Source of the DNA: a virus
Lineage: Duplodnaviria > Caudoviricetes
DNA length: 64,000 nucleotides
Virus record (IMG/VR): IMGVR_UViG_3300005683_000068
Coordinates: 10,218 to 74,217 of that record
Reading direction: 5' to 3' (one strand)
Shown here piece by piece: positions 10,175 through 36,172 of the stretch; position 1 is the stretch's first letter; the number at the start of each line of letters is the position of its first letter. The notes beneath the pieces were generated by a model. It saw only the letters and a list, made by a program, of their open reading frames with translations, searched no databases and had not been told where the DNA came from. Position numbers and translations under genes: made by a program.

Positions 10175-10504
10175 CTAGGAAGCTGCCAATCGTTCCAAGA
10201 TAGCAGTTACCACGGAAATCAAAATACCGCGAAGGGCCAAAAAAGAAGCTATTGGGCCGAGAGGAAACAATACACCAAAGATACGCACTACTTCTTCTGC
10301 TACTGCCTTACGTTCCTCAGGCGTGTCGATTAGTTCTTTTCCTTGTCCCATAATGACCTTAATCATTGCGGACAGCACGTCTGAAACCTGACCCTCCATT
10401 GGCTTACCTGCCAATGCTGCTTGCTCAGCGGCAACCTCCATTGCTGGAGCTAACGCTGCATTCAATTGTGATGCGTTCAACGGTTCCATTTTCAACTCCT
10501 TCAT
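10175..10504 (-). CDS. Hypothetical protein (109 aa, hydrophobic C-terminus)
   Basis: Clean ORF in operon. Confidence 0.55.
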   Translation of the reverse strand: MKELKMEPLNASQLNAALAPAMEVAAEQAALAGKPMEGQVSDVLSAMIKVIMGQGKELIDTPEERKAVAEEVVRIFGVLFPLGPIASFLALRGILISVVTAILERLAAS

Positions 10505-18712: not shown

Positions 18713-18900
18713 TGCTTCTCACTTTCTAAACCAGAAGCAGCTCTATCATCATCCAATGTCAATTCCGTTCTCCTGATCAAAACATCTTTTGGAGCCTCTA
18801 TAGCTAATGAAACCCTGTGTCCATCAATTTTCGTTACTCGCACCACAATACCACCACCAATCACAATACTCTCACCAACCCGACGCGATAGCACTAGCAT
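18709..18900 (-). CDS. csrA: Carbon storage regulator CsrA
   Basis: 'MLVLSRRVGESIVIG...VSLAIEAPKDVLIRRTEL' is the canonical CsrA pattern. Confidence 0.92.
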   Translation of the reverse strand: MLVLSRRVGESIVIGGGIVVRVTKIDGHRVSLAIEAPKDVLIRRTELTLDDDRAASGLESEKH

Positions 18901-20213
18901 TGAAATTCCTTTCTTAAAGCAGATTCAATGTCACTAAACACCTGACCCCAACACCCTCGATAACGCTGTCTGAACAGCCTCATTGAGGGATACCACGGTG
19001 AATCATGTCTATCGAGCAACCACCTCCAATTTGCTACATAAGGTAAACACACCCAAACAGGAACACCCATCGCACCAGCCAAATGAGCGATTGAAGTGTC
19101 ATTAGTAATAACTAAATCCATGCTCATCATTACAGCAGCCGTATCCATAAACGACTGAGCATCATACTCTTTCAACTCTGCTGAAGGATTGATCATTCCA
19201 TTTTGGAGTATGTCTTTCTGTAAATTAACAAGCACAAAAGGACTAACTCCAGGAGTGCCTACTAAGGGCTGAAACAACTCAACTGGTATATCTCTAGCAG
19301 CCATCATACCAGTATAAATCTTGATTCCAGGATATGCCTGTGGGGCCTCACCTCCCCTTCCCTTCCAATTAACTCCAATCTTGATCTTGTTTAATCCTTG
19401 AAAGTAGTCCTTCCAGTAATCAACCAGTTCTGGATTAGCTTTAATATAACCAACCTCCCCAGGAATATCCTCAACATACTGAGTTAATATGCCAGGAATA
19501 GACATTAAAGGAATCTGATAATCAAACTCAGGAAGAACATCATCATAAGTAAACAGATCAATAAAAGTCTCTGACAGCAAAGACACAAGCTGCTTCTGTA
19601 CCTCACTTATAACCTTAAAGCCACATTCATTCTCCAGCATCCTTACATATCTAATAAACTGCATTGTGTCGCCCAATCCTTGTTCAGCATGAACAAGGAT
19701 TGTTTTCCCTTCTCCTGATTCTCCCCACCATCTAGGTTTATTGTATCTCGGATCAACTGCCTTCATGCCTACCGGAGGCCGTGCTTCATAATAAGCAAAG
19801 CCAGTCTCAAAATCACCAAGATGAAGCCTCAATTCCCCAAGGTTATAGAACAACAGCAAATGATTAGGGTCAATCTTAATACCCTTCTCATAACAATCCT
19901 CGGCAAGTTCATACTGCCCCCATTCATAAAAGTTGCGGCCACGGTTGCACCAAAAATGAGGATTGTTAGGTTCCAAATCACAAGCCTTTTTGTAAGACTC
20001 GTCTGATTCCTCAAATTTATCTTGGAGATGCAAACAAAAACCAAGATTGTAAAACAACACACCTGATTCAGGATCACAATCAATTGCTTGTCTTAATAAA
20101 GTCTCAGCCCTTACCAAATTATTAGACTTCATGTGACGCAGGGCTCTGTCACAATGATAAGCAGCAACTTTCCTACGCTCTATTCTTGTCATTTGATCCT
20201 CTTCTTCTTTCAC
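18894..20213 (-). CDS. TPR-repeat glycosyltransferase (GT-B, GT9-like)
   Basis: N-terminal TPRs, 'AEQGLGDTMQF', 'DLVITNDTSIAHLAGAMG', 'SPWYPSMRLFRQ'. Confidence 0.85.
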   Translation of the reverse strand: MKEEEDQMTRIERRKVAAYHCDRALRHMKSNNLVRAETLLRQAIDCDPESGVLFYNLGFCLHLQDKFEESDESYKKACDLEPNNPHFWCNRGRNFYEWGQYELAEDCYEKGIKIDPNHLLLFYNLGELRLHLGDFETGFAYYEARPPVGMKAVDPRYNKPRWWGESGEGKTILVHAEQGLGDTMQFIRYVRMLENECGFKVISEVQKQLVSLLSETFIDLFTYDDVLPEFDYQIPLMSIPGILTQYVEDIPGEVGYIKANPELVDYWKDYFQGLNKIKIGVNWKGRGGEAPQAYPGIKIYTGMMAARDIPVELFQPLVGTPGVSPFVLVNLQKDILQNGMINPSAELKEYDAQSFMDTAAVMMSMDLVITNDTSIAHLAGAMGVPVWVCLPYVANWRWLLDRHDSPWYPSMRLFRQRYRGCWGQVFSDIESALRKEFQC

Positions 20214-27981: not shown

Positions 27982-28491
27982 TCAATCATTTGAATTCTCC
28001 TTTGAGTGGCGTTTTCGCTGTCCCCGCTTCATTGTCATCCGATCTTTGGCCTCAGTCATAGCTTCACGATCTTCCTCCTTTCTTGCTCTGGGTTCGGCAA
28101 AATAACTCTGACCATGTAAGTCAACAAGATTCTCCAAAGCACGTTTTCGATGATCTAAAGCATTTACAAATGCCTGAAGTACATCTACCTTATGCTTGGC
28201 GTCAATCAATGCATTGTTAGCAACCTGATACCGTTTGAGAGTTGGAATACAATTCTTGATTGCATTCTCAGTCACCTTCTCCCCTATATCATGCCCCTCT
28301 GGATCGGCCCGAATGTCAGCATCGAGTTCCGCTACAGTAAGTTCCAATTCGCTCTTTGACAAGTCGAGATCACGTCTGGCATCGGCCAGCTTCGCAGCAT
28401 ACTCCAAATAAAGTTTGGGTTGGTTTACCCATTCTTCATCCAACCTAAGTTGATTGATTTCCAAAACGGATTCATCGCGTTTCATAAACAC
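27982..28491 (-). CDS. UvsY-like recombination mediator
   Basis: 'LDEEW..QP.LY..YA...ALDHRKRALENLV.L' helical family; adjacent to ssb and recA. Confidence 0.65.
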   Translation of the reverse strand: MFMKRDESVLEINQLRLDEEWVNQPKLYLEYAAKLADARRDLDLSKSELELTVAELDADIRADPEGHDIGEKVTENAIKNCIPTLKRYQVANNALIDAKHKVDVLQAFVNALDHRKRALENLVDLHGQSYFAEPRARKEEDREAMTEAKDRMTMKRGQRKRHSKENSND

Positions 28492-28523
28492 ACTCCTCCC
28501 ATATACTTAATATCGTAACACAA

Positions 28524-29450
28524 TCACTTCTTATTTGAATAAATTTCATAACATGACAAGATCAATCCGGGTCGCCCACAATCATAAAAATGATCCCTCA
28601 TTACTTGTCCAATGAAATATGCTCTGGCTGCTAGTTTGCCTCCACCAAGCACCACAGAGGACATATAGCCTAGCAGCATACGACGGATTTGCTCTGGTTC
28701 ATCATCTATAATTCTTAGCAAGTTCGCTATCACTGCCCATTTAGATTGTGGATTCAACATTGCCCGTGCCAAGTCGATCATAGGTTTCTTTGATCCACCA
28801 GCATGAACTACCTCTAACTGCTCATCCTCTGTCTCCAACAAAGACACCTGATTCAGAAACACAAGTGCCTTGCGTGCTGAGCCTGCCGCTGCTTCCACAA
28901 TGGCATCTCGTACCGTCTCCAGGATTTTGATCTTCTCTTTCTGGCACACTTCTTGGAGTAACTGCTCCATGTGCTTTGGAGGTAATGCCTTTACCCGCAC
29001 TTCATTACAACGGTTGACTACGGTTTCCTTCAACTTACCTGGATTGGTTGTGGCCAGCATGAAATACACATGACTAGGCGTATCCTCGAGCATCTTCAAC
29101 AGAGCATCTTGAGCATCCCCAGTCAACTGGTGTGCTTCATCTATCAACCAAATACGGCACAGTCCATTCATTGGAGATAGTTTCATCCTGCTCCGTATGT
29201 CCCGCACCGTGTTAATTCCATTGAAGTCAGCACAGTTGACCTCAAAGAAATCAGAATCCCCACATGACAATTTATGCTGAAGAATTCTGGCTAGAGTTGT
29301 CTTGCCACAACCAGATGGGCCGGTAAACAACAACGCATGAGGGAATCGTTCTTTGTTCTTCAATAGCTTTTGGAGTGATGCTACAGCAGCATCTTGTCCA
29401 ACCACTTGCTTAAATAATTTGGGTCGGTACTTAAGATAAAACTCAGACAT
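28524..29450 (-). CDS. dnaX: Clamp loader ATPase (DnaX/RFC-like)
   Basis: 'LKYRPKLF..VVGQ', 'GPSGCGKTT', 'IDEAH', 'ALLKMLED'. Confidence 0.88.
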   Translation of the reverse strand: MSEFYLKYRPKLFKQVVGQDAAVASLQKLLKNKERFPHALLFTGPSGCGKTTLARILQHKLSCGDSDFFEVNCADFNGINTVRDIRSRMKLSPMNGLCRIWLIDEAHQLTGDAQDALLKMLEDTPSHVYFMLATTNPGKLKETVVNRCNEVRVKALPPKHMEQLLQEVCQKEKIKILETVRDAIVEAAAGSARKALVFLNQVSLLETEDEQLEVVHAGGSKKPMIDLARAMLNPQSKWAVIANLLRIIDDEPEQIRRMLLGYMSSVVLGGGKLAARAYFIGQVMRDHFYDCGRPGLILSCYEIYSNKK

Positions 29451-30826
29451 TATTTTGGGAACTCCACTTGTTTCTTGTCATACCAAGAACCACCTTCTGG
29501 ACAAACCTCGGCCTCAATCTCTAGTGGTACTATGATCCATTTCCATAGTTTAGGAACCACTACTGTTGTCACCTCCTTTACCAAGGACAAGTATTCATTT
29601 AGCTCATCTACTCTTACATCAGCCAAAATACTGTCATGGATTTGTCCAATCACCTTACTCCGCATCCTCAACTTTCGCATTCGTCTGAGCAGTATAATTA
29701 GACTCTTAAGCAACAAATGAAAGGATGATCCTTGATTGGCCATGTTGATTACTTGATTGCGTCGCATGATGCCACGCAACACAAATCCAGTAAGTGTTTT
29801 TACATAACCACATTCCAAATAGTTACTCCACACATCTCTACGCCACTTAGCATACACATGAAACTTGTTCCAGAATCGTTCCTCCACTTCTTTAATGTGT
29901 CGCTCGAATGTTCCCTTCTTTGGTATTTTATTAGGATCAAGATCACCTAATTCTTTAATGCCCCTCTTTGCTAAAACATCACCAATTGGAACACCATCAT
30001 TTGTTTGCAGTCCCATATCTAATATCGCTTGCCACAACTCCGCAGCACAATCAACATAGTAACTACCATAGAACTCTGGGAACACAAACTTATTCTTCGC
30101 ACAATATCTAGTATGTTTGTTTACCTGATCTACTGGCAAGCAATAGCACTCAGAAGCCATGTCACGATGCATATCCTTGGTTGGATCCTTGATATAATCT
30201 ATCAACACCGGGTCTTTGCAATAGCAAGCTATACCACGTACCTCAATACCACCAAAGTCGTTTTCAACTAGAACACTGTTCTTTCTAGCTATCACGCAAG
30301 TTCTAATCGGCTTGCCCATCACAGGATCACGGACTGGGATGTTCTGCCAGTTAGGCAGCTCGCCACTAGAGCGATAGCTCGACACTGTGTTCAGATTAAA
30401 CACTGGATGCAAAAAACCATTCGCATCTACTTCACGGCGAATGTTCTCAAGGTACGTTCCACGCATCTTTTGCTTCTTGGCCAGCAAGAAGTAGGTTTTT
30501 ACAAACGAATGATCCACATGATTAAAGGCTTCTTCATCATTGTTTCCTTTAGTACGGTCGAATCCAAGTACATCAAACACAATCGCTCCAAGCTGCCTGC
30601 GATTGCCCAAAACAGCCTTCTGTCCAAAACGCTTAGTCCATAGCTTCCATACTTTGTCATTGCGGAGTTCCTGTTCCAGTGTAAGGATTTCATTTTCAAC
30701 ATCCTTAATCGCTTTGTTGAGATACTTGGTATCTATCCTAATACCATTAGCCTCAATCTCTGCAAAAGCGATACTGCCTTCTCGCAGCAGATCATAGGCT
30801 TCTGGTGTCGCTGGAATCATTTTCAT
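29450..30826 (-). CDS. polA: Family A DNA polymerase, polymerase domain only
   Basis: 'YRSSGELPNWQNIP', motif A 'DFGGIEVR', motif B 'RYCAKNKFVFPEFYG', motif C 'QIHDSI'. Confidence 0.92.
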   Translation of the reverse strand: MKMIPATPEAYDLLREGSIAFAEIEANGIRIDTKYLNKAIKDVENEILTLEQELRNDKVWKLWTKRFGQKAVLGNRRQLGAIVFDVLGFDRTKGNNDEEAFNHVDHSFVKTYFLLAKKQKMRGTYLENIRREVDANGFLHPVFNLNTVSSYRSSGELPNWQNIPVRDPVMGKPIRTCVIARKNSVLVENDFGGIEVRGIACYCKDPVLIDYIKDPTKDMHRDMASECYCLPVDQVNKHTRYCAKNKFVFPEFYGSYYVDCAAELWQAILDMGLQTNDGVPIGDVLAKRGIKELGDLDPNKIPKKGTFERHIKEVEERFWNKFHVYAKWRRDVWSNYLECGYVKTLTGFVLRGIMRRNQVINMANQGSSFHLLLKSLIILLRRMRKLRMRSKVIGQIHDSILADVRVDELNEYLSLVKEVTTVVVPKLWKWIIVPLEIEAEVCPEGGSWYDKKQVEFPK

Positions 30827-30847
30827 CGTAATTGAAATCCTGGATTC

Positions 30848-32059
30848 TTATTGATCTTGATTGCCCGTCGCTTTATAGAACACCTTTTGCTTCTGATAAA
30901 GTTTGTACTCTAGCAATGAGTCAAGTCCATTGTAGAGTAGAAGTTCTTTCATATCACATTTATCAATGGTGTTTACTTTGGTGTTTCCTTTCGCTTTCAA
31001 GTAAGGTTTTATGTGTTGATCGTAGCTCTCGAATCCCAATCTCACAAACGATTGAAACTTCAGTCCAGTAATATCAGGTCTGTTATCTTCAATATGAGCA
31101 GCCAGTATAGTATCCCAATGCCAATTCCTTACTGGATGTCCAAGCACAGCCCTGGTCCAGCGTTCTTCAAACTTGAGATTGCTGGCTATTTTATTTAGTG
31201 GCCCACGCAGTAACTCACTCATTTGTTGGATCACCTCACCACGCCAAGGAAACGCCATTGTGTGCTTCCCATCAAAACACACTGAGCATGATACGATCCT
31301 CGCATAAAGATCATCTGGTTTGAGGCAATTGGTTTCATAGTCGAAGGCTAGATCAACCGCCCCTTTAGACCATTCCAGCAACAACCTAGCGGCATGGTTG
31401 GGATCGTACTCAATATGTACCTTCGATTTCCAATCAGGTACTTTCTTCCAAGGACGACCGGATAGCTTAAAAGCCTCCTTGAGATGATGAGTCATATACA
31501 TCTCAGTCATGGGGTCCTTGCCACGTAGCAAGAACGCTGGATGATATGTAGGACAGATCCAAGCGTTGGGTTTCTGACAAGGGATTTGCCAACCTACCCA
31601 TCTACCTATAGCTCCTATGTCCTCCTTCCATATACCACCAATCAAAGATTTTACCGCTGTGCCTCCAAGCGGGATAATTATCTCCGGTTGAAGTTCTTGG
31701 ATGGTGTTGAACAAATTGGGCCGGCAGTATTGGATCTCCTTGTCATCTGGAGTTCTGTTATCTTCTGGACGGCAAATAATAGCATTGGTTAGCCAACAAT
31801 CCCGCCTCATATTCACACCAAACCTAAGCAGCAAATCCATCAGGTATTGACCTGAGTTGCCCACCAATTGCTTACCTTGCTCATCTTCATTTTTACCAGG
31901 AGCCTCTGCAACAATCAAAACCCTGCGTTCTCCTTTCCCTGTTGGTTTCATCTTAGGAGATATGCAATGTTTGTAGAGACCGCACTTCCCACACAAAGGA
32001 GTTTTTGGCATCTCCTCTTCTTTGACCATATAACGTGATGAGAAAAAACCTTGCCTCAT
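30848..32059 (-). CDS. Family-4 uracil-DNA glycosylase fused to a 3'-5' exonuclease domain (separate N-terminal part of the polymerase)
   Basis: Fe-S 'CGKCGLYKHC', 'AEAPGKNED', 'TYHPA'; exonuclease motifs 'FDYETN', 'NLKFE', 'WDT', 'YNGLDS'. Confidence 0.88.
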   Translation of the reverse strand: MRQGFFSSRYMVKEEEMPKTPLCGKCGLYKHCISPKMKPTGKGERRVLIVAEAPGKNEDEQGKQLVGNSGQYLMDLLLRFGVNMRRDCWLTNAIICRPEDNRTPDDKEIQYCRPNLFNTIQELQPEIIIPLGGTAVKSLIGGIWKEDIGAIGRWVGWQIPCQKPNAWICPTYHPAFLLRGKDPMTEMYMTHHLKEAFKLSGRPWKKVPDWKSKVHIEYDPNHAARLLLEWSKGAVDLAFDYETNCLKPDDLYARIVSCSVCFDGKHTMAFPWRGEVIQQMSELLRGPLNKIASNLKFEERWTRAVLGHPVRNWHWDTILAAHIEDNRPDITGLKFQSFVRLGFESYDQHIKPYLKAKGNTKVNTIDKCDMKELLLYNGLDSLLEYKLYQKQKVFYKATGNQDQ

Positions 32060-32499
32060 CCCAACCATTTGATAAGCTCCTGTTCACTCACCATGAAACA
32101 ATCGCTGGCTGTCTGATCAAATCGAAGAATATAAACCCAACCAGACGCATCAACCCCTTTTATCTTAATGTTATTAGGACCCCACTCCATGCCACAAATC
32201 ACAGCAGAACAATCATCACAGACTTCATTTGAAACCCTGACAATTTGCCCTATGCTAAATTTAGCTGCTGGAGGTTTTGGTATTCGTTTTAGCCATTCTG
32301 GCATCCTTCCTTCATTCGCTTTGAATGCCTTGATACTATCCAACAATTCCTTTTGCTCTCGTTTTGTTACTACAGTTTCATCTAATTCCTTCGCTCTCCT
32401 TCCACCAAGCATAGCCTTCCTTGTTAAAACATCCATAGAGATTTCTGACACGTCTTTACTCTTCTTCACTGGTTCCTTTTTCTTCTTGATCATTGTCAT
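32056..32499 (-). CDS. Hypothetical protein with C-terminal SH3-like domain
   Basis: 'AKFSIGQIVRV...GWVYIL'. Confidence 0.55.
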   Translation of the reverse strand: MTMIKKKKEPVKKSKDVSEISMDVLTRKAMLGGRRAKELDETVVTKREQKELLDSIKAFKANEGRMPEWLKRIPKPPAAKFSIGQIVRVSNEVCDDCSAVICGMEWGPNNIKIKGVDASGWVYILRFDQTASDCFMVSEQELIKWLG

Positions 32500-33508
32500 T
32501 CTCCTTAGGGGTTTTTTCAAGACAAGCAATGTAAGTATAGTTTCCGCCATTCACCTTCAAACGATCCTTGGTAATCTCACACTCATGGTATCTTTTACAT
32601 AGCTCACTAAGTAGCTTTGGCGATACCATGAACGACAGCGGTTCCCCTTTGTAGGCAAGTTTTTTAGATTCGCTGTACCAGCCTGACACACCGATGCCTT
32701 TGATCCGTAGCTTGCCAGGACGTAACTCTACTAACACTTGATTGGTTTCAGTGTTCTCAGAACTAAACACCTCTGCTTTCTCGGCTGCATCAGACAAACC
32801 TTTAGGCAGCACAGTAGAAGTGCCTTTTACCTTGAGCAGTTCAGTAAGATCAGGATACTGCTCAATATACTTGCGACAAGACACAATCAAACCTGTCTTG
32901 TTCTTGAAGTGAATCCAAGATTCCGTCACACTAAACTCCTTCAAATCGAGCACAGTCAGGCATTTTATAGCATAACTTCTCACCAAAATAGCTTCACTAA
33001 CACCAACAACCATCTTGTATCTGCTCAATTGGAAGTTATCACAAGCCTCAATCCACTTTGGACTGATATTCACACAAGTTGCCCAAAACTGAGACTCGTC
33101 CTTACCAGCACATTCATGAACTAAGGACACAGCCTCAGTAAAACCTTCTGGAACCGGCTGCCAGTTTTTTGGCTTGTCCACATTCTTAAGAGGCAGCAGA
33201 ACATCCTTATCCATCCTAATCCCTGCTTGCCGACGTTTACCTACAATCACAAGCTCTGATTCATTGGGTATTAGCTCGATGCTTTCCTCAGCCAGTTTCT
33301 GCAAGATAGAAACCAATGGCTTTGCCTGTACAACACCAGTAAACTTCAGATTGGTTTTCTGACGGCACGACACCTCATCATTGTAAGTGATTAGATTTCC
33401 TTCCTGAAACACAAAACAACTTGATTGTTCTATCACCTCACGGGAAGACAATCCCGGAGCAACAGCATCAAGTTGTTCCAACAGTTCTTGTCTATTAACT
33501 ACAATCAT
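32456..33508 (-). CDS. dnaN: DNA sliding clamp, beta-clamp (DnaN)-like
   Basis: 350 aa; 'VNRQELL..L..V' start, three repeated alpha/beta domains, 'YPDL..LL'; near the DnaX-like loader. Confidence 0.65.
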   Translation of the reverse strand: MIVVNRQELLEQLDAVAPGLSSREVIEQSSCFVFQEGNLITYNDEVSCRQKTNLKFTGVVQAKPLVSILQKLAEESIELIPNESELVIVGKRRQAGIRMDKDVLLPLKNVDKPKNWQPVPEGFTEAVSLVHECAGKDESQFWATCVNISPKWIEACDNFQLSRYKMVVGVSEAILVRSYAIKCLTVLDLKEFSVTESWIHFKNKTGLIVSCRKYIEQYPDLTELLKVKGTSTVLPKGLSDAAEKAEVFSSENTETNQVLVELRPGKLRIKGIGVSGWYSESKKLAYKGEPLSFMVSPKLLSELCKRYHECEITKDRLKVNGGNYTYIACLEKTPKENDNDQEEKGTSEEE

Positions 33509-34440
33509 TCTTGATCCTTCCTAAAAACAAGGACGTTTTGATGACTACGAACAAGCTTCTTGTTCCCTCTATCAAAAATAGAACTAGTTCTCAAACAAGC
33601 TGTTCCAACAGGGGTACAATACACGGCATCTGTATGATACACACAACCAGCTTCCTCAAAAGCACGAATGCTATCACCTACAAAGTCACGACACTTCTTA
33701 AACTTCCTATCATAAAAGGGGGCTACTACCCAAACAGCAAAGCCGCCCGGCTTCAATCGTCTCACAACCCGTTTAACAATAGCACGATGCACCACTTCAA
33801 ATTCTTCATATACCAATCTGGATATATCTCCATCCAATTTGGAATACACCTCTATGTTCCCATAAGGAGGGCATGAGAACAACAAATCACACTCTGGAGC
33901 CTTCTTTGATGCCTTAAGGCTGTCACCAACTACCCATTCTGGCCTTGGAACGTCCAACTTAGGACAAGGGCCGTTCTCCCAATTAGCCTCATTGGCTTTT
34001 ATTTGATCTGGGCGAATATCAATGCCGTAGTAATTGAGATCCATCATGGATGCCACAATACCACGGACACTACCACCACAGAAAGGATCAAACACCATCC
34101 CTCCCTTCTCTGGCCCCCACCACCTATAGATGAGTTCACACAAGACTGGATCAAACACTGACACAAAGGAAATAGCAGTACGCCCATACTTCTCATTGAA
34201 GAAGTTATGAGTACGATCGTAGATGCGAGATTCCTTTGTATCACCACGTCCCTCATCACTCTTGATGTTAAGCCACTTCAACCAGCGGCGTTTGCATACA
34301 ATCCAATCATAGTCCCTACCATTCAGAACAGAAAATGGCGGAACTCCATACCTCCCAACTAAAGCACCTCTAGCCGGAGGTACATATTCTGTGACCAGTC
34401 CCTTGCGAACTGTTTGTAGGTCCTTGTTCTTGCTTCGCAT
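33505..34440 (-). CDS. DNA amino-methyltransferase-like protein
   Basis: SAM motif 'VFDPFCGGSVRG', 'GIDIR', catalytic 'SCPPY'. Confidence 0.85.
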   Translation of the reverse strand: MRSKNKDLQTVRKGLVTEYVPPARGALVGRYGVPPFSVLNGRDYDWIVCKRRWLKWLNIKSDEGRGDTKESRIYDRTHNFFNEKYGRTAISFVSVFDPVLCELIYRWWGPEKGGMVFDPFCGGSVRGIVASMMDLNYYGIDIRPDQIKANEANWENGPCPKLDVPRPEWVVGDSLKASKKAPECDLLFSCPPYGNIEVYSKLDGDISRLVYEEFEVVHRAIVKRVVRRLKPGGFAVWVVAPFYDRKFKKCRDFVGDSIRAFEEAGCVYHTDAVYCTPVGTACLRTSSIFDRGNKKLVRSHQNVLVFRKDQE

Positions 34441-34456
34441 GGTATTCCCCTATACC

Positions 34457-35239
34457 TTAATATCGTTTCCACTCACCACGACACCCAGTCACCCACAAAC
34501 AATCCCCGTCCTTTACAAAAGGCATGGCTTTCGCTGCATAAAACGGATCAAGAATATCACCATCAGGGAGCCTGATGTCTAACATGGGCTTCTCGTAAGG
34601 AATCCTCAACTTTACAAATTCAAGTCTTGGAACCTCCTTAACATACTTGAGTGCTGTCTCTATGATCTTCTCTTTACTTGCCAAGCTCGAAACAGCAACA
34701 GCAATCACCTTAACATCACTACCAGCCAATCCAACCAAAACACCAGCGGCCACCAATCCCGATCCAGTTGGGACTATCACTCTGCGAATATCACTTGGCA
34801 GATTGTTTGTTTGTACTGCGGTATCCAACACAGCTAGTTTTGGATTCCATCTAACACAACCCCCAAGTCCCCGAGCAAATTCTTTTGCTCTAGAACGATA
34901 TACAGAAGGATATCCAGGGCGAACTTCATGAACCTCGGCCCCCATATCAATGGCCCATTGGGTTGATCTGGTACGCTTAGCACGAGCAGGAACAAAAACA
35001 ATACCCCTCGTGTTGCATCGCTTAGCAGCATCAGCCACATATACTTGTTGTGCTGAAGATGCTGAACAACCAACCACCATCGGTGTTCCTTTTGGACAGT
35101 CTTTTGCCATTGCAAGATACTGTCTCACCTTTGAACCGCTAGGCATATCAGCTGAGATGAAACATGCCTTGTCATCTCTCTTGGCATACCATCCATCAAA
35201 AACATCAACTCTGGTCAGCACATCAACCTTAGGTTTCAT
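34457..35239 (-). CDS. PLP-dependent fold-type II enzyme (ACC deaminase / cysteine synthase-like)
   Basis: 'KRDD', 'SGSKVR' Schiff-base Lys, 'VPTGSGLVAAG' phosphate loop, 'LDPFYAAK'. Confidence 0.85.
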   Translation of the reverse strand: MKPKVDVLTRVDVFDGWYAKRDDKACFISADMPSGSKVRQYLAMAKDCPKGTPMVVGCSASSAQQVYVADAAKRCNTRGIVFVPARAKRTRSTQWAIDMGAEVHEVRPGYPSVYRSRAKEFARGLGGCVRWNPKLAVLDTAVQTNNLPSDIRRVIVPTGSGLVAAGVLVGLAGSDVKVIAVAVSSLASKEKIIETALKYVKEVPRLEFVKLRIPYEKPMLDIRLPDGDILDPFYAAKAMPFVKDGDCLWVTGCRGEWKRY

Positions 35240-35314
35240 TGAAAGTTCTCCGAACGAAAAAACCCCCATAAGGATTTCTTATGGGGGTCTAAGAGGCACA
35301 ATCATAACCGAAAA

Positions 35315-36082
35315 CTAGGCTTTCAACAAGTAGCCTCCGTCCTTGGCCTTCTTCACATGTCCAGCCTCGATCAACTTGTTCATGTGATTGTAACAAGTGG
35401 TTTCCAAACCAGCCTTCTTGAGGATGTCCGTCATCTTGAAGGATTTGCCTTTGGAGCCCAACTTGACAACTGCCACATTGATAGCAGCCGCATTGGTCCC
35501 CTCACGAGCACCGAACTCATCACGCTCCACACTGCTCTCCTTCTTTGCCTTGGCTGGCTTCTTCTTAGATGCCTTGGCCGGCTTCTCATCCTCTTCTTCG
35601 TCTTCGTCCTCGTCCTTGGCCTTCTTGGATGCCTTGGCTGGCTTCTTCTTCTTGGCCGGCTTCTCATCCTCTTCTTCGTCTTCGTCAGCCTCGGCTTCCT
35701 CCTCTTCATCCTCCTCTTCGTCCTCGTCCTCGTCCTCATCCTCCTCTTCGTCCTCGTCCTCATCTTCGTCTTCGTCCTCATCTTCTGCCTTGGGCTTGCC
35801 CTTGCTCTTGGCAGCGGCCTTCTTAGCCTTCTTGGCTGGCTTCTCCTCTTCCTCTTCGTCATCCACTTCAATTTCCAATTCGTCAAGCAAGGACGGTGTC
35901 TTGGCCAGCTTACTCAGTAGTTTCTTGGCCTCCTCGTCTTCGATCTCGCTGATGGTCTCCTCGTCGATCTTGGGCAGGACAGCCTTCAGCTTGGCGATGC
36001 ACCGCTCAGCCGTCATCTTCTCAGCGTCCTTGTAGCCGAGTTCGGTCAGGACGGACACAACCACGTTCTTCGCAGTCTTCAT
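35315..36082 (-). CDS. Acidic/Lys-Ala-rich histone-like protein with C-terminal winged helix
   Basis: D/E tracts alternating with KPAKK repeats; GC-rich codons; dedicated upstream promoter. Confidence 0.7.
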   Translation of the reverse strand: MKTAKNVVVSVLTELGYKDAEKMTAERCIAKLKAVLPKIDEETISEIEDEEAKKLLSKLAKTPSLLDELEIEVDDEEEEEKPAKKAKKAAAKSKGKPKAEDEDEDEDEDEDEEEDEDEDEDEEEDEEEEAEADEDEEEDEKPAKKKKPAKASKKAKDEDEDEEEDEKPAKASKKKPAKAKKESSVERDEFGAREGTNAAAINVAVVKLGSKGKSFKMTDILKKAGLETTCYNHMNKLIEAGHVKKAKDGGYLLKA

Positions 36083-36143
36083 AACAAACTCCTCACAAAA
36101 CAAAAGGAACAAAACTTGCGGATAACACATCCGCTAAGTGACT

Positions 36144-36172
36144 AACTTAATATCGTTCTAGAACTTTGTCAA
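36144..36172 (-). promoter_or_regulatory. Sigma70-type promoter with palindromic operator GTTCTAGAAC in the spacer
   Basis: TTGACA (36172-36167), 17 bp, TAAGTT (36149-36144); palindrome at 36155-36164. Confidence 0.6.

Follow-up and report, generated by a model that had tools for sequence, protein, structure and literature searches.

What do two adjacent genes, one for an S-adenosylmethionine (SAM)-dependent transferase and one for a pyridoxal 5'-phosphate (PLP) enzyme, do together in the replication block of an uncultured phage? The pair lies at positions 33505-35239 of a 64,000-nucleotide stretch of DNA (the window, by which we mean that whole stretch) that corresponds to positions 10,218 to 74,217 of IMG/VR record IMGVR_UViG_3300005683_000068. 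The record is a complete 74,217-bp phage genome (CheckV 100%) from a bioreactor-sludge metagenome, and the stretch was found in sequencing runs solely as contigs of the 2015 source metagenome. A preliminary description of the window had reported two adjacent, co-oriented genes here with no cognate restriction enzyme; we found both open reading frames (ORFs) on the minus strand at exactly these coordinates, and no nuclease gene adjoins them. It had further proposed that the two enzymes act together, and by a route other than the known one through 5-hydroxymethyluracil (hmU). Both proposals hold up in the analysis below, and the pair is best explained as a DNA-modification module, widespread among phages and so far unstudied, in a form that is split and without ParB.

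The transferase gene (33505..34440, minus strand; P0001) encodes 311 residues and was assigned from the ORF call and from Pfam and PHROG profile matches to a family referred to here as CPPY. Its match to the Pfam family N6_N4_Mtase (PF01555) scores 38.4 bits against a cut-off of 26.7 and covers motif I only. Among PHROG profiles it matches phrog_12517 (7e-68) and phrog_498 (4.5e-52), the latter over profile positions 310-596 of 633 only. The motifs follow the order X, I (DPFCGGSVRG, residues 118-127), II, III (WVVGDS) and IV (FSCPPY). When compared with solved structures, the family profile finds beta-class amino-methylases (TTHA0409 at 3e-11, an N4-cytosine methylase, CcrM and M.MboIIA), and motif I of the window protein aligns with motif I of TTHA0409, N4CMT and CcrM. 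Relative to the solved beta-class chains the two halves are swapped, with motif I (query 91-137) preceding motif IV (query 158-232). As judged from these profile alignments, the CPPY family is a circular permutation of the beta-class N6/N4 DNA methylases. Its motif IV cysteine is invariant, being present in 161 of 161 family sequences, and departs from the D/N/S-P-P-Y/F/W of the amino-methylases. The single-strand methylases M.EcoGIX and M.BceJIII (PMC7736820) were considered as family members and excluded because they have DPPY and the beta-class order.

The family comprises 3055 clusters among 1.84 billion representatives, 1516 of them at E<=1e-30. Most members are 350-530 residues long and carry an N-terminal extension, where PHROG scans of three fused members show ParB. 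The window transferase is ParB-less, and the ParB domain (PF02195) has no match anywhere in the complete genome. The protein does have a conserved N-terminal extension of about 90 residues, which includes the family linker motif W..RKR.W..GI.SE.GR, together with a C-terminal tail. The earlier remark that the enzyme has little room for a target-recognition domain is thus right in part; the extension and the tail could serve as one. The structural model of the transferase, with a predicted local distance difference test (pLDDT) score of 76, resembles the class I methyltransferases Trm11, TrmN and PrmA.

The second gene (34457..35239, minus strand) encodes a short fold-type II PLP enzyme of 260 residues when read from the ATG at 35239, which has a GGAGAA ribosome site. 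We rejected the upstream ATG at 35269, which would give a 270-residue reading (P0002), because it sits within the stem of a hairpin described below. The protein scores 33.8 bits against PALP (PF00291), just below the cut-off of 35, and most of its homologues carry PF00291. Its structural model (pLDDT 92.8) matches fold-type II structures at Foldseek probability 1.0, among them CJ0600, the 1-aminocyclopropane-1-carboxylate (ACC) deaminase homologue PH0054, D-cysteine desulfhydrase and ACC deaminase (E 4e-11 to 1e-9, template modelling (TM) scores of 0.6-0.69). On the strength of this predicted structure, the fold-type II assignment appears secure, and the ACC-deaminase-like character suggested earlier is supported by the fold. 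We collected 177 near-length homologues (250-320 residues). Across an alignment of 31 sequences, with 44-58% identity to the window protein, the invariant residues include K47 (PSGSKVRQ), the SG of the TGSGL phosphate loop, and Y244 and K247 (LDPFYAAKA). In the alignment with L-serine ammonia-lyase (5c3u), the region of the PLP lysine is the counterpart of K47 and the GGGG loop that of TGSGL, while the tyrosine motif LDPFYAAKA aligns with LLDPVYTGKA of the ACC deaminase and D-cysteine desulfhydrase group. Profile matches to solved structures are weak: the E value is 5e-4 for serine ammonia-lyase and about 3e-3 to 5e-3 for D-cysteine desulfhydrase and ACC deaminase, whose alignments cover part of the chain.

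Profile methods connect the PLP protein to an enzyme of phage M6. The window protein matches phrog_3650 (8.9e-14) and phrog_7093 (1.6e-12), and M6 gp52 itself belongs to phrog_7093 (2e-159). Alignment of the PLP family with gp52 by hhalign spans 225 columns (probability 96.8%, E 3e-10) and places gp52 K36 opposite Lys47 of the window enzyme. Against the family profile, gp52 reaches 30.9 bits along its full length, as compared with 23 bits over a partial match for the best PDB entry. A tblastn search of the PLP protein against 50,697 phage records returned nothing at E<=1e-5, and the gp52 link comes from profile methods only. By these profile comparisons, M6 gp52 is the best characterised relative of the window PLP enzyme. 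Both M6 gp52 and ViI gp226 have been shown to decarboxylate glycine- and serine-thymine conjugates in DNA (PMC8989533).

The two families are joined in nature in several ways. In a protein of 789 residues (P0123), which combines ParB with the transferase, a PLP domain 57% identical to that of the window is nested between the equivalents of transferase residues ~155 and ~165, and Pseudanabaena phage Pam4 gp70, whose published annotation is simply that of a PLP enzyme, is also of the nested form. The nesting point is the exact junction of the circular permutation. Another protein, of 813 residues (P0124), has the order ParB, transferase, PLP, that is, a C-terminal fusion. Fused PLP domains occur in 10 of the top 150 transferase-family representatives. 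Erythrobacter phage R6L gp1, an 830-residue family member with a PLP domain and a clamp-like gene after it, has been published as a CcrM-like methylase (PMC5463345). Full-text searches of the literature gave no description of a methylase-PLP module and no published product for any CPPY member. What the window adds is the split, ParB-less form of the module, embedded among replisome genes.

Unfused copies of the two genes also recur side by side. Four viral contigs with the PLP gene (L004, L005, L009 and L017) have the transferase directly downstream; all four have PolB rather than PolA and are therefore not close kin of the window phage. In two more such contigs the transferase is within 4-7 kb. 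The sole complete PLP-carrying contig without such adjacency encodes the transferase elsewhere, and the contigs without a transferase are fragments. A transferase is present at 16 of the 28 evaluable metagenome PLP loci, and the PLP gene is present at 10 of 80 viral transferase loci, in seven cases immediately downstream. On the family tree the PLP-linked transferases make up 13 scattered groups; the pairing has therefore been gained or lost many times. Because fusions occur in two architectures and adjacency is recurrent, the pairing is far beyond chance. The natural fusions and repeated adjacency also mean that the functional link between the transferase and the PLP enzyme is real and strongly supported.

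A related pair is found in a cultured phage, the Twort-like Staphylococcus phage Alsa_1 (OR354820; L183:3930-6690). Its replication module encodes an SPPY relative of the transferase (hhalign E 8e-14) and, about 1 kb downstream, a 242-residue relative of the PLP enzyme (E 3e-13) that has Gly at the position aligned with the PLP lysine and Lys two residues later. This pair could be a tractable model or a degenerate form.

Some CPPY transferases have a different partner, and the comparison bears on which cofactor the window enzyme uses. Croceibacter phage P2559S gp66 is a CPPY family member whose 3' end overlaps gp67 (L022:2524-4165), and gp67 is a SAM decarboxylase (AdoMetDC) of proven activity (PMC9992855). 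We examined viral contigs (L103-L182) with gp67 relatives, which are decarboxylases of the short class 1b type; at the 75 loci with enough upstream sequence, a CPPY transferase is directly upstream in 59 and within 4 kb in 68, and a PLP gene is present in none. PLP and AdoMetDC partners never occur together (0/80 and 0/93 loci), and the window phage genome has no AdoMetDC homologue. The AdoMetDC-linked transferases are monophyletic, with 66 of 66 tips under one ancestor. This sister clade keeps FSCPPY..LEVYS, has DCFAGDTVFG in place of DPFAGGSVRG and YICDDG in place of WxxGDS, and has lost the N-terminal GI.SE.GR. The corresponding glycine-rich loop of spermidine synthase contains an aspartate that is held to repel the SAM carboxylate and whose replacement yields a SAM-using methyltransferase (PMC3725402). 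Given this parallel and its own motif changes, the AdoMetDC-linked clade very probably uses decarboxylated SAM (dcSAM), and by the same analogy the CPPY family is able to adapt to the cofactor's propylamine arm. The use of dcSAM by a DNA-modifying enzyme would explain why many phages carry AdoMetDC without spermidine synthase. The window transferase falls outside this clade and has GGSVRG and WVVGDS. All 25 PLP-linked transferases keep Gly123, Arg126 and WxxGDS, all of which the AdoMetDC-linked clade has changed. Since Gly123, Arg126 and WVVGDS are retained in the window protein, its predicted cofactor pocket is of the SAM type and it should bind SAM itself.

To our knowledge, the characterised amino-acid-derived hypermodifications of phage DNA all start from 5-hydroxymethyl pyrimidines made before replication. 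The complete genome lacks a ThyA-like dUMP hydroxymethylase (PF00303) and any aGPT-Pplase homologue, and tblastn with M6 gp51 (the amino-acid:DNA transferase), gp53 (radical SAM), gp54 (the 5-hydroxymethyldeoxyuridine (5-hmdU) kinase), gp55 and gp58 gave nothing below E 0.3 in the genome. Of the M6 hmU-pathway proteins searched, gp52 alone has a match there, which is the PLP gene. As none of the genes of that route is present in the complete genome, the conclusion that the window pair is not the known hmU route is supported, in agreement with the first view of this locus. Nor does the genome encode any alternative way of making a modified base.

What, then, would the module make? PLP enzymes need a primary amine, normally that of an alpha-amino acid. 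Together with the repeated building of the PLP domain into a DNA-bound enzyme, its gp52-type relatives and the occurrence of a SAM decarboxylase as the second partner of the family, this requirement points to the transfer of a 3-amino-3-carboxypropyl (acp) group from SAM to a base, followed by PLP-dependent decarboxylation. The invariant CPPY motif and the lack of another base-modification route in the genome are further points in its favour, and we give this two-step reading a probability of roughly 0.35. The transferase, acting after replication, would move the acp part of SAM, rather than the methyl group, onto a DNA base. The PLP enzyme would then bind the free alpha-amino acid end of the adduct and remove CO2; the resulting 3-aminopropyl base would carry a positive charge and protect the DNA against host nucleases. 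The pair's position in the replisome operon and its coupling to the sliding clamp gene suggest that newly made DNA would be marked genome-wide. For the second step, elimination or deamination had been proposed earlier; decarboxylation appears to be the better guess from homology, because the nearest characterised PLP relatives, such as M6 gp52, decarboxylate amino-acid adducts on DNA. More tentatively, these phages may possess DNA with a SAM-derived acp or 3-aminopropyl base that is installed after replication by a CPPY transferase and trimmed by a gp52-like PLP enzyme, with sister phages reaching the product from dcSAM. In the window phage, such a system would be a ParB-less one within the replisome operon, perhaps coupled to the clamp.

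Several observations weigh against acp transfer followed by decarboxylation. The transferase family is clearly homologous to real N6-adenine and N4-cytosine methylases and descends from true methylases; its fold matches ordinary methyltransferases rather than any known acp or aminopropyl transferase. At about 85-90% of family loci there is neither a PLP nor a decarboxylase partner, and in the sample examined the commonest recognisable neighbour of these remaining transferases is the gene for the small terminase subunit. Twelve of the 28 evaluable metagenome PLP loci have no transferase within the flanks. In two approaches, no alignment column was found to separate 25 PLP-linked from 37 unlinked transferases. 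As no residue divides linked from unlinked members and most loci are partnerless, the simplest view of the sequences would be that the common transferase core methylates. The sister clade does not fix the chemistry of the main family either, as putrescine N-methyltransferase and spermidine synthase show, by analogy, that the transferred group can switch with the cofactor. Likewise, the reaction type of PLP enzymes changes easily, and homology to gp52 does not fix the chemistry. The product proposed for the pair is a prediction from sequences and structural models.

These points are the substance of the strongest alternative, in which the transferase is an ordinary, probably low-specificity methyltransferase that makes N6-methyladenine (m6A) or N4-methylcytosine (m4C) and thereby protects the phage DNA, while the PLP enzyme assists it by converting a small molecule at the same site, perhaps through degradation of the inhibitory by-product S-adenosylhomocysteine (SAH) or of another SAM-derived amino acid. 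We hold this alternative with considerable doubt, as only slightly less probable than the two-step reading. It accommodates core residues that are alike with and without a PLP partner, the many family members that stand alone, the homology to proven N6/N4 methylases with a carboxylate-type pocket in which Arg126 is kept, and a PLP fold in the ACC-deaminase and D-cysteine-desulfhydrase branch, for which small sulfur- or SAM-derived amino acids are the substrates. However, no PLP-dependent methylase helper that removes SAH is known, and a diffusible substrate would hardly explain why the PLP domain is repeatedly nested within an enzyme bound to DNA. The closest characterised PLP relatives act on DNA adducts, and the invariant motif IV cysteine is atypical of amino-methylases.

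The remaining alternatives give the PLP protein other roles. It could be a stand-in SAM decarboxylase that makes dcSAM, from which the transferase would move an aminopropyl group straight to DNA. The tight coupling of the sister clade to a proven pyruvoyl SAM decarboxylase and the mutual exclusion of PLP and AdoMetDC partners would fit such a substitution, which we nevertheless regard as improbable: the SAM-type pocket is kept in 25 of 25 PLP-linked transferases, including that of the window, and is changed precisely in the clade with the decarboxylase. Nor do we give much weight to a non-catalytic PLP domain that the methylase would use for DNA recognition or as a structural module, in a place where a target-recognition domain could be. 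The nested domain is indeed at the junction of the SAM-binding and catalytic halves of a transferase that has no obvious large recognition domain, but the invariance of the PLP lysine, phosphate loop and active-site tyrosine in 31 of 31 sequences, at 44-58% identity, indicates selection on catalysis. Least probable is a chance neighbourhood of two unconnected genes, one for an orphan methylase and one for an auxiliary metabolic PLP enzyme. The 12 PLP loci without a flanking transferase would be expected under such an arrangement, but chance is already contradicted by two independent fusion architectures, and adjacency recurs across phages with differing replication machinery, with the transferase still encoded in the complete genome in which the genes are not adjacent.

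The locus matters because the characterised hypermodification machinery is absent while the module couples a tailoring PLP enzyme to a SAM-dependent transferase. If acp transfer and decarboxylation are correct, phages would have, in this module, a second way to amine-bearing DNA that is independent of hmU, and it would be the first case of an acp or aminopropyl group being transferred to DNA. The new enzymatic activity could serve in site-directed DNA labelling, and hundreds of uncultured phages would have a new class of DNA that evades restriction and CRISPR. If the product is plain methylation instead, the repeated fusion of PLP enzyme and methylase would still need explaining.

In the window, the pair is set within the replication genes. 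On one side lie the sliding clamp, a uracil-DNA glycosylase (UDG)-exonuclease, PolA and the clamp loader; on the other lie a gene for an acidic protein of 271 residues, which together with the DnaB helicase gene flanks the pair, and then primase. The wider block also encodes a gp32-like single-stranded DNA-binding protein (SSB), a RecA-like protein, a flap nuclease, SbcCD-like genes, an SNF2 helicase and a sigma factor. The start of the sliding clamp gene (32456..33508, minus strand) overlaps the transferase stop codon (ATGA), and the clamp gene is translationally coupled to the transferase. A terminator-like hairpin of 13 pairs followed by a T run (35260..35290, minus strand) separates the upstream 271-residue gene from the PLP gene; the pair may therefore be its own transcription unit starting there, or receive reduced read-through past the hairpin. 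A sliding-clamp gene adjoins transferase or PLP genes in several otherwise different phages (R6L gp1-gp2 (L002), L003:1488-2561, L013:11263-12336 and the window), which hints that the modification enzyme works at the replication fork. Inspection of the window proteins by eye recognised no clamp-binding motif.

The motif ACGATATTAAG overlaps the PLP stop codon (34456..34466, minus strand) and ends ~15-16 nt ahead of the transferase ATG. This exact 11-mer has three copies in the window, all on the minus strand (28506-28516, 34456-34466 and 36146-36156); the other two also precede genes of the replication block. The copies at 34456 and 36146 end about 15 nt ahead of the starts of the transferase and the 271-residue gene, and the copy at 28506 ends about 15 nt ahead of a GTG ORF start at 28491. 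A search that tolerates one mismatch gives 4 matches, as compared with 0.6 expected. The motif is a candidate phage promoter or translational signal.

Three other proteins of the window deserve mention. The 271-residue protein (35315-36130, minus strand) has long Asp/Glu runs broken by Lys-rich KPAKK repeats and a short helix-turn-helix-like C-terminal domain, and may mimic DNA or be histone-like. In blastn, the region matches jumbo-phage genes, one of them annotated as single-stranded DNA-binding; we dismissed these hits as spurious products of this low-complexity acidic gene. The family A DNA polymerase (29450-32068, minus strand) is split into two neighbouring ORFs that both match the single long phrog_17 profile, one with UDG and 3'-5' exonuclease (30848-32068, minus strand) and one with the polymerase domain (29450-30826, minus strand). 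UDG-fused phage PolA enzymes were recently described (bioRxiv 10.1101/2025.03.26.645540); in the window phage the fusion is divided. A protein of 439 residues (18894-20213, minus strand) has N-terminal tetratricopeptide repeats (TPR) and, at its C-terminal end, weakly matches glycosyltransferase family 9 (E 2e-4); we found no link between it and the modification module.

How does the pair compare with known systems? The beta-class N6/N4 methylases (PF01555; TTHA0409, CcrM, M.MboIIA, M.PvuII and N4CMT) share with the window family an alignable motif I, the xPPY loop and the LE.Y segment that follows it. They differ in having the halves in the opposite order and D, N or S where the window family has an invariant Cys as its first catalytic residue; the window family has in addition a conserved N-terminal PPFSVL..W..RKR.W..GI.SE.GR extension and an invariant Arg in motif I. 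The ParB-fused methyltransferases (phrog_498) have the same core, and Enterococcus phage phiFL3A gp36 and Mycobacterium phage Vincenzo gp1 are 40% identical to the window protein, which in contrast is ParB-less and resides in a replisome operon rather than beside terminase. A survey of ParB-CTPase fusions includes N6_N4 methylase fusions, without chemistry (bioRxiv 10.1101/2025.10.10.680097). Pairs of CPPY transferase and AdoMetDC, such as P2559S gp66-gp67, belong to the same family, with the FSCPPY..LEVYS loop and a decarboxylase partner tied to the amino-acid end of SAM. However, where the window protein has Gly and Arg in motif I and WVVGDS as motif III, that clade shows Asp, Phe and YICDDG, and a gp67-type partner is pyruvoyl-dependent and acts on free SAM.

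For the PLP enzyme, the best structural matches are ACC deaminase, D-cysteine desulfhydrase, PH0054 and CJ0600, with which the lysine, the glycine-rich phosphate loop and the DP.Y..K tyrosine align. The window protein is 60-80 residues shorter than ACC deaminase, at 15-20% identity and sequence E values of ~3e-3 to 5e-3, and unlike that group its relatives are physically fused to DNA enzymes. M6 gp52 and ViI gp226 differ from it in sequence, at about 25% identity, and in setting, since the window genome is without dUMP hydroxymethylase, 5-hmdU kinase, amino-acid:DNA transferase and radical-SAM isomerase. The partner in the window is a SAM-dependent transferase instead, and the activity of the window PLP enzyme is a prediction. 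Yet all are short (~260-280 residues) fold-type II PLP enzymes encoded by phages among DNA-metabolism genes, and gp52 is homologous to the window protein over its full length, with the lysine and the C-terminal PFY..KA motif common to both. Fusions of the PLP decarboxylase with the amino-acid-attaching enzyme have also been reported (PMC8989533). Thus, the M6 gp52/ViI gp226 enzymes and the window PLP family are both found fused to an enzyme that attaches a group, a role that for the window transferase is predicted.

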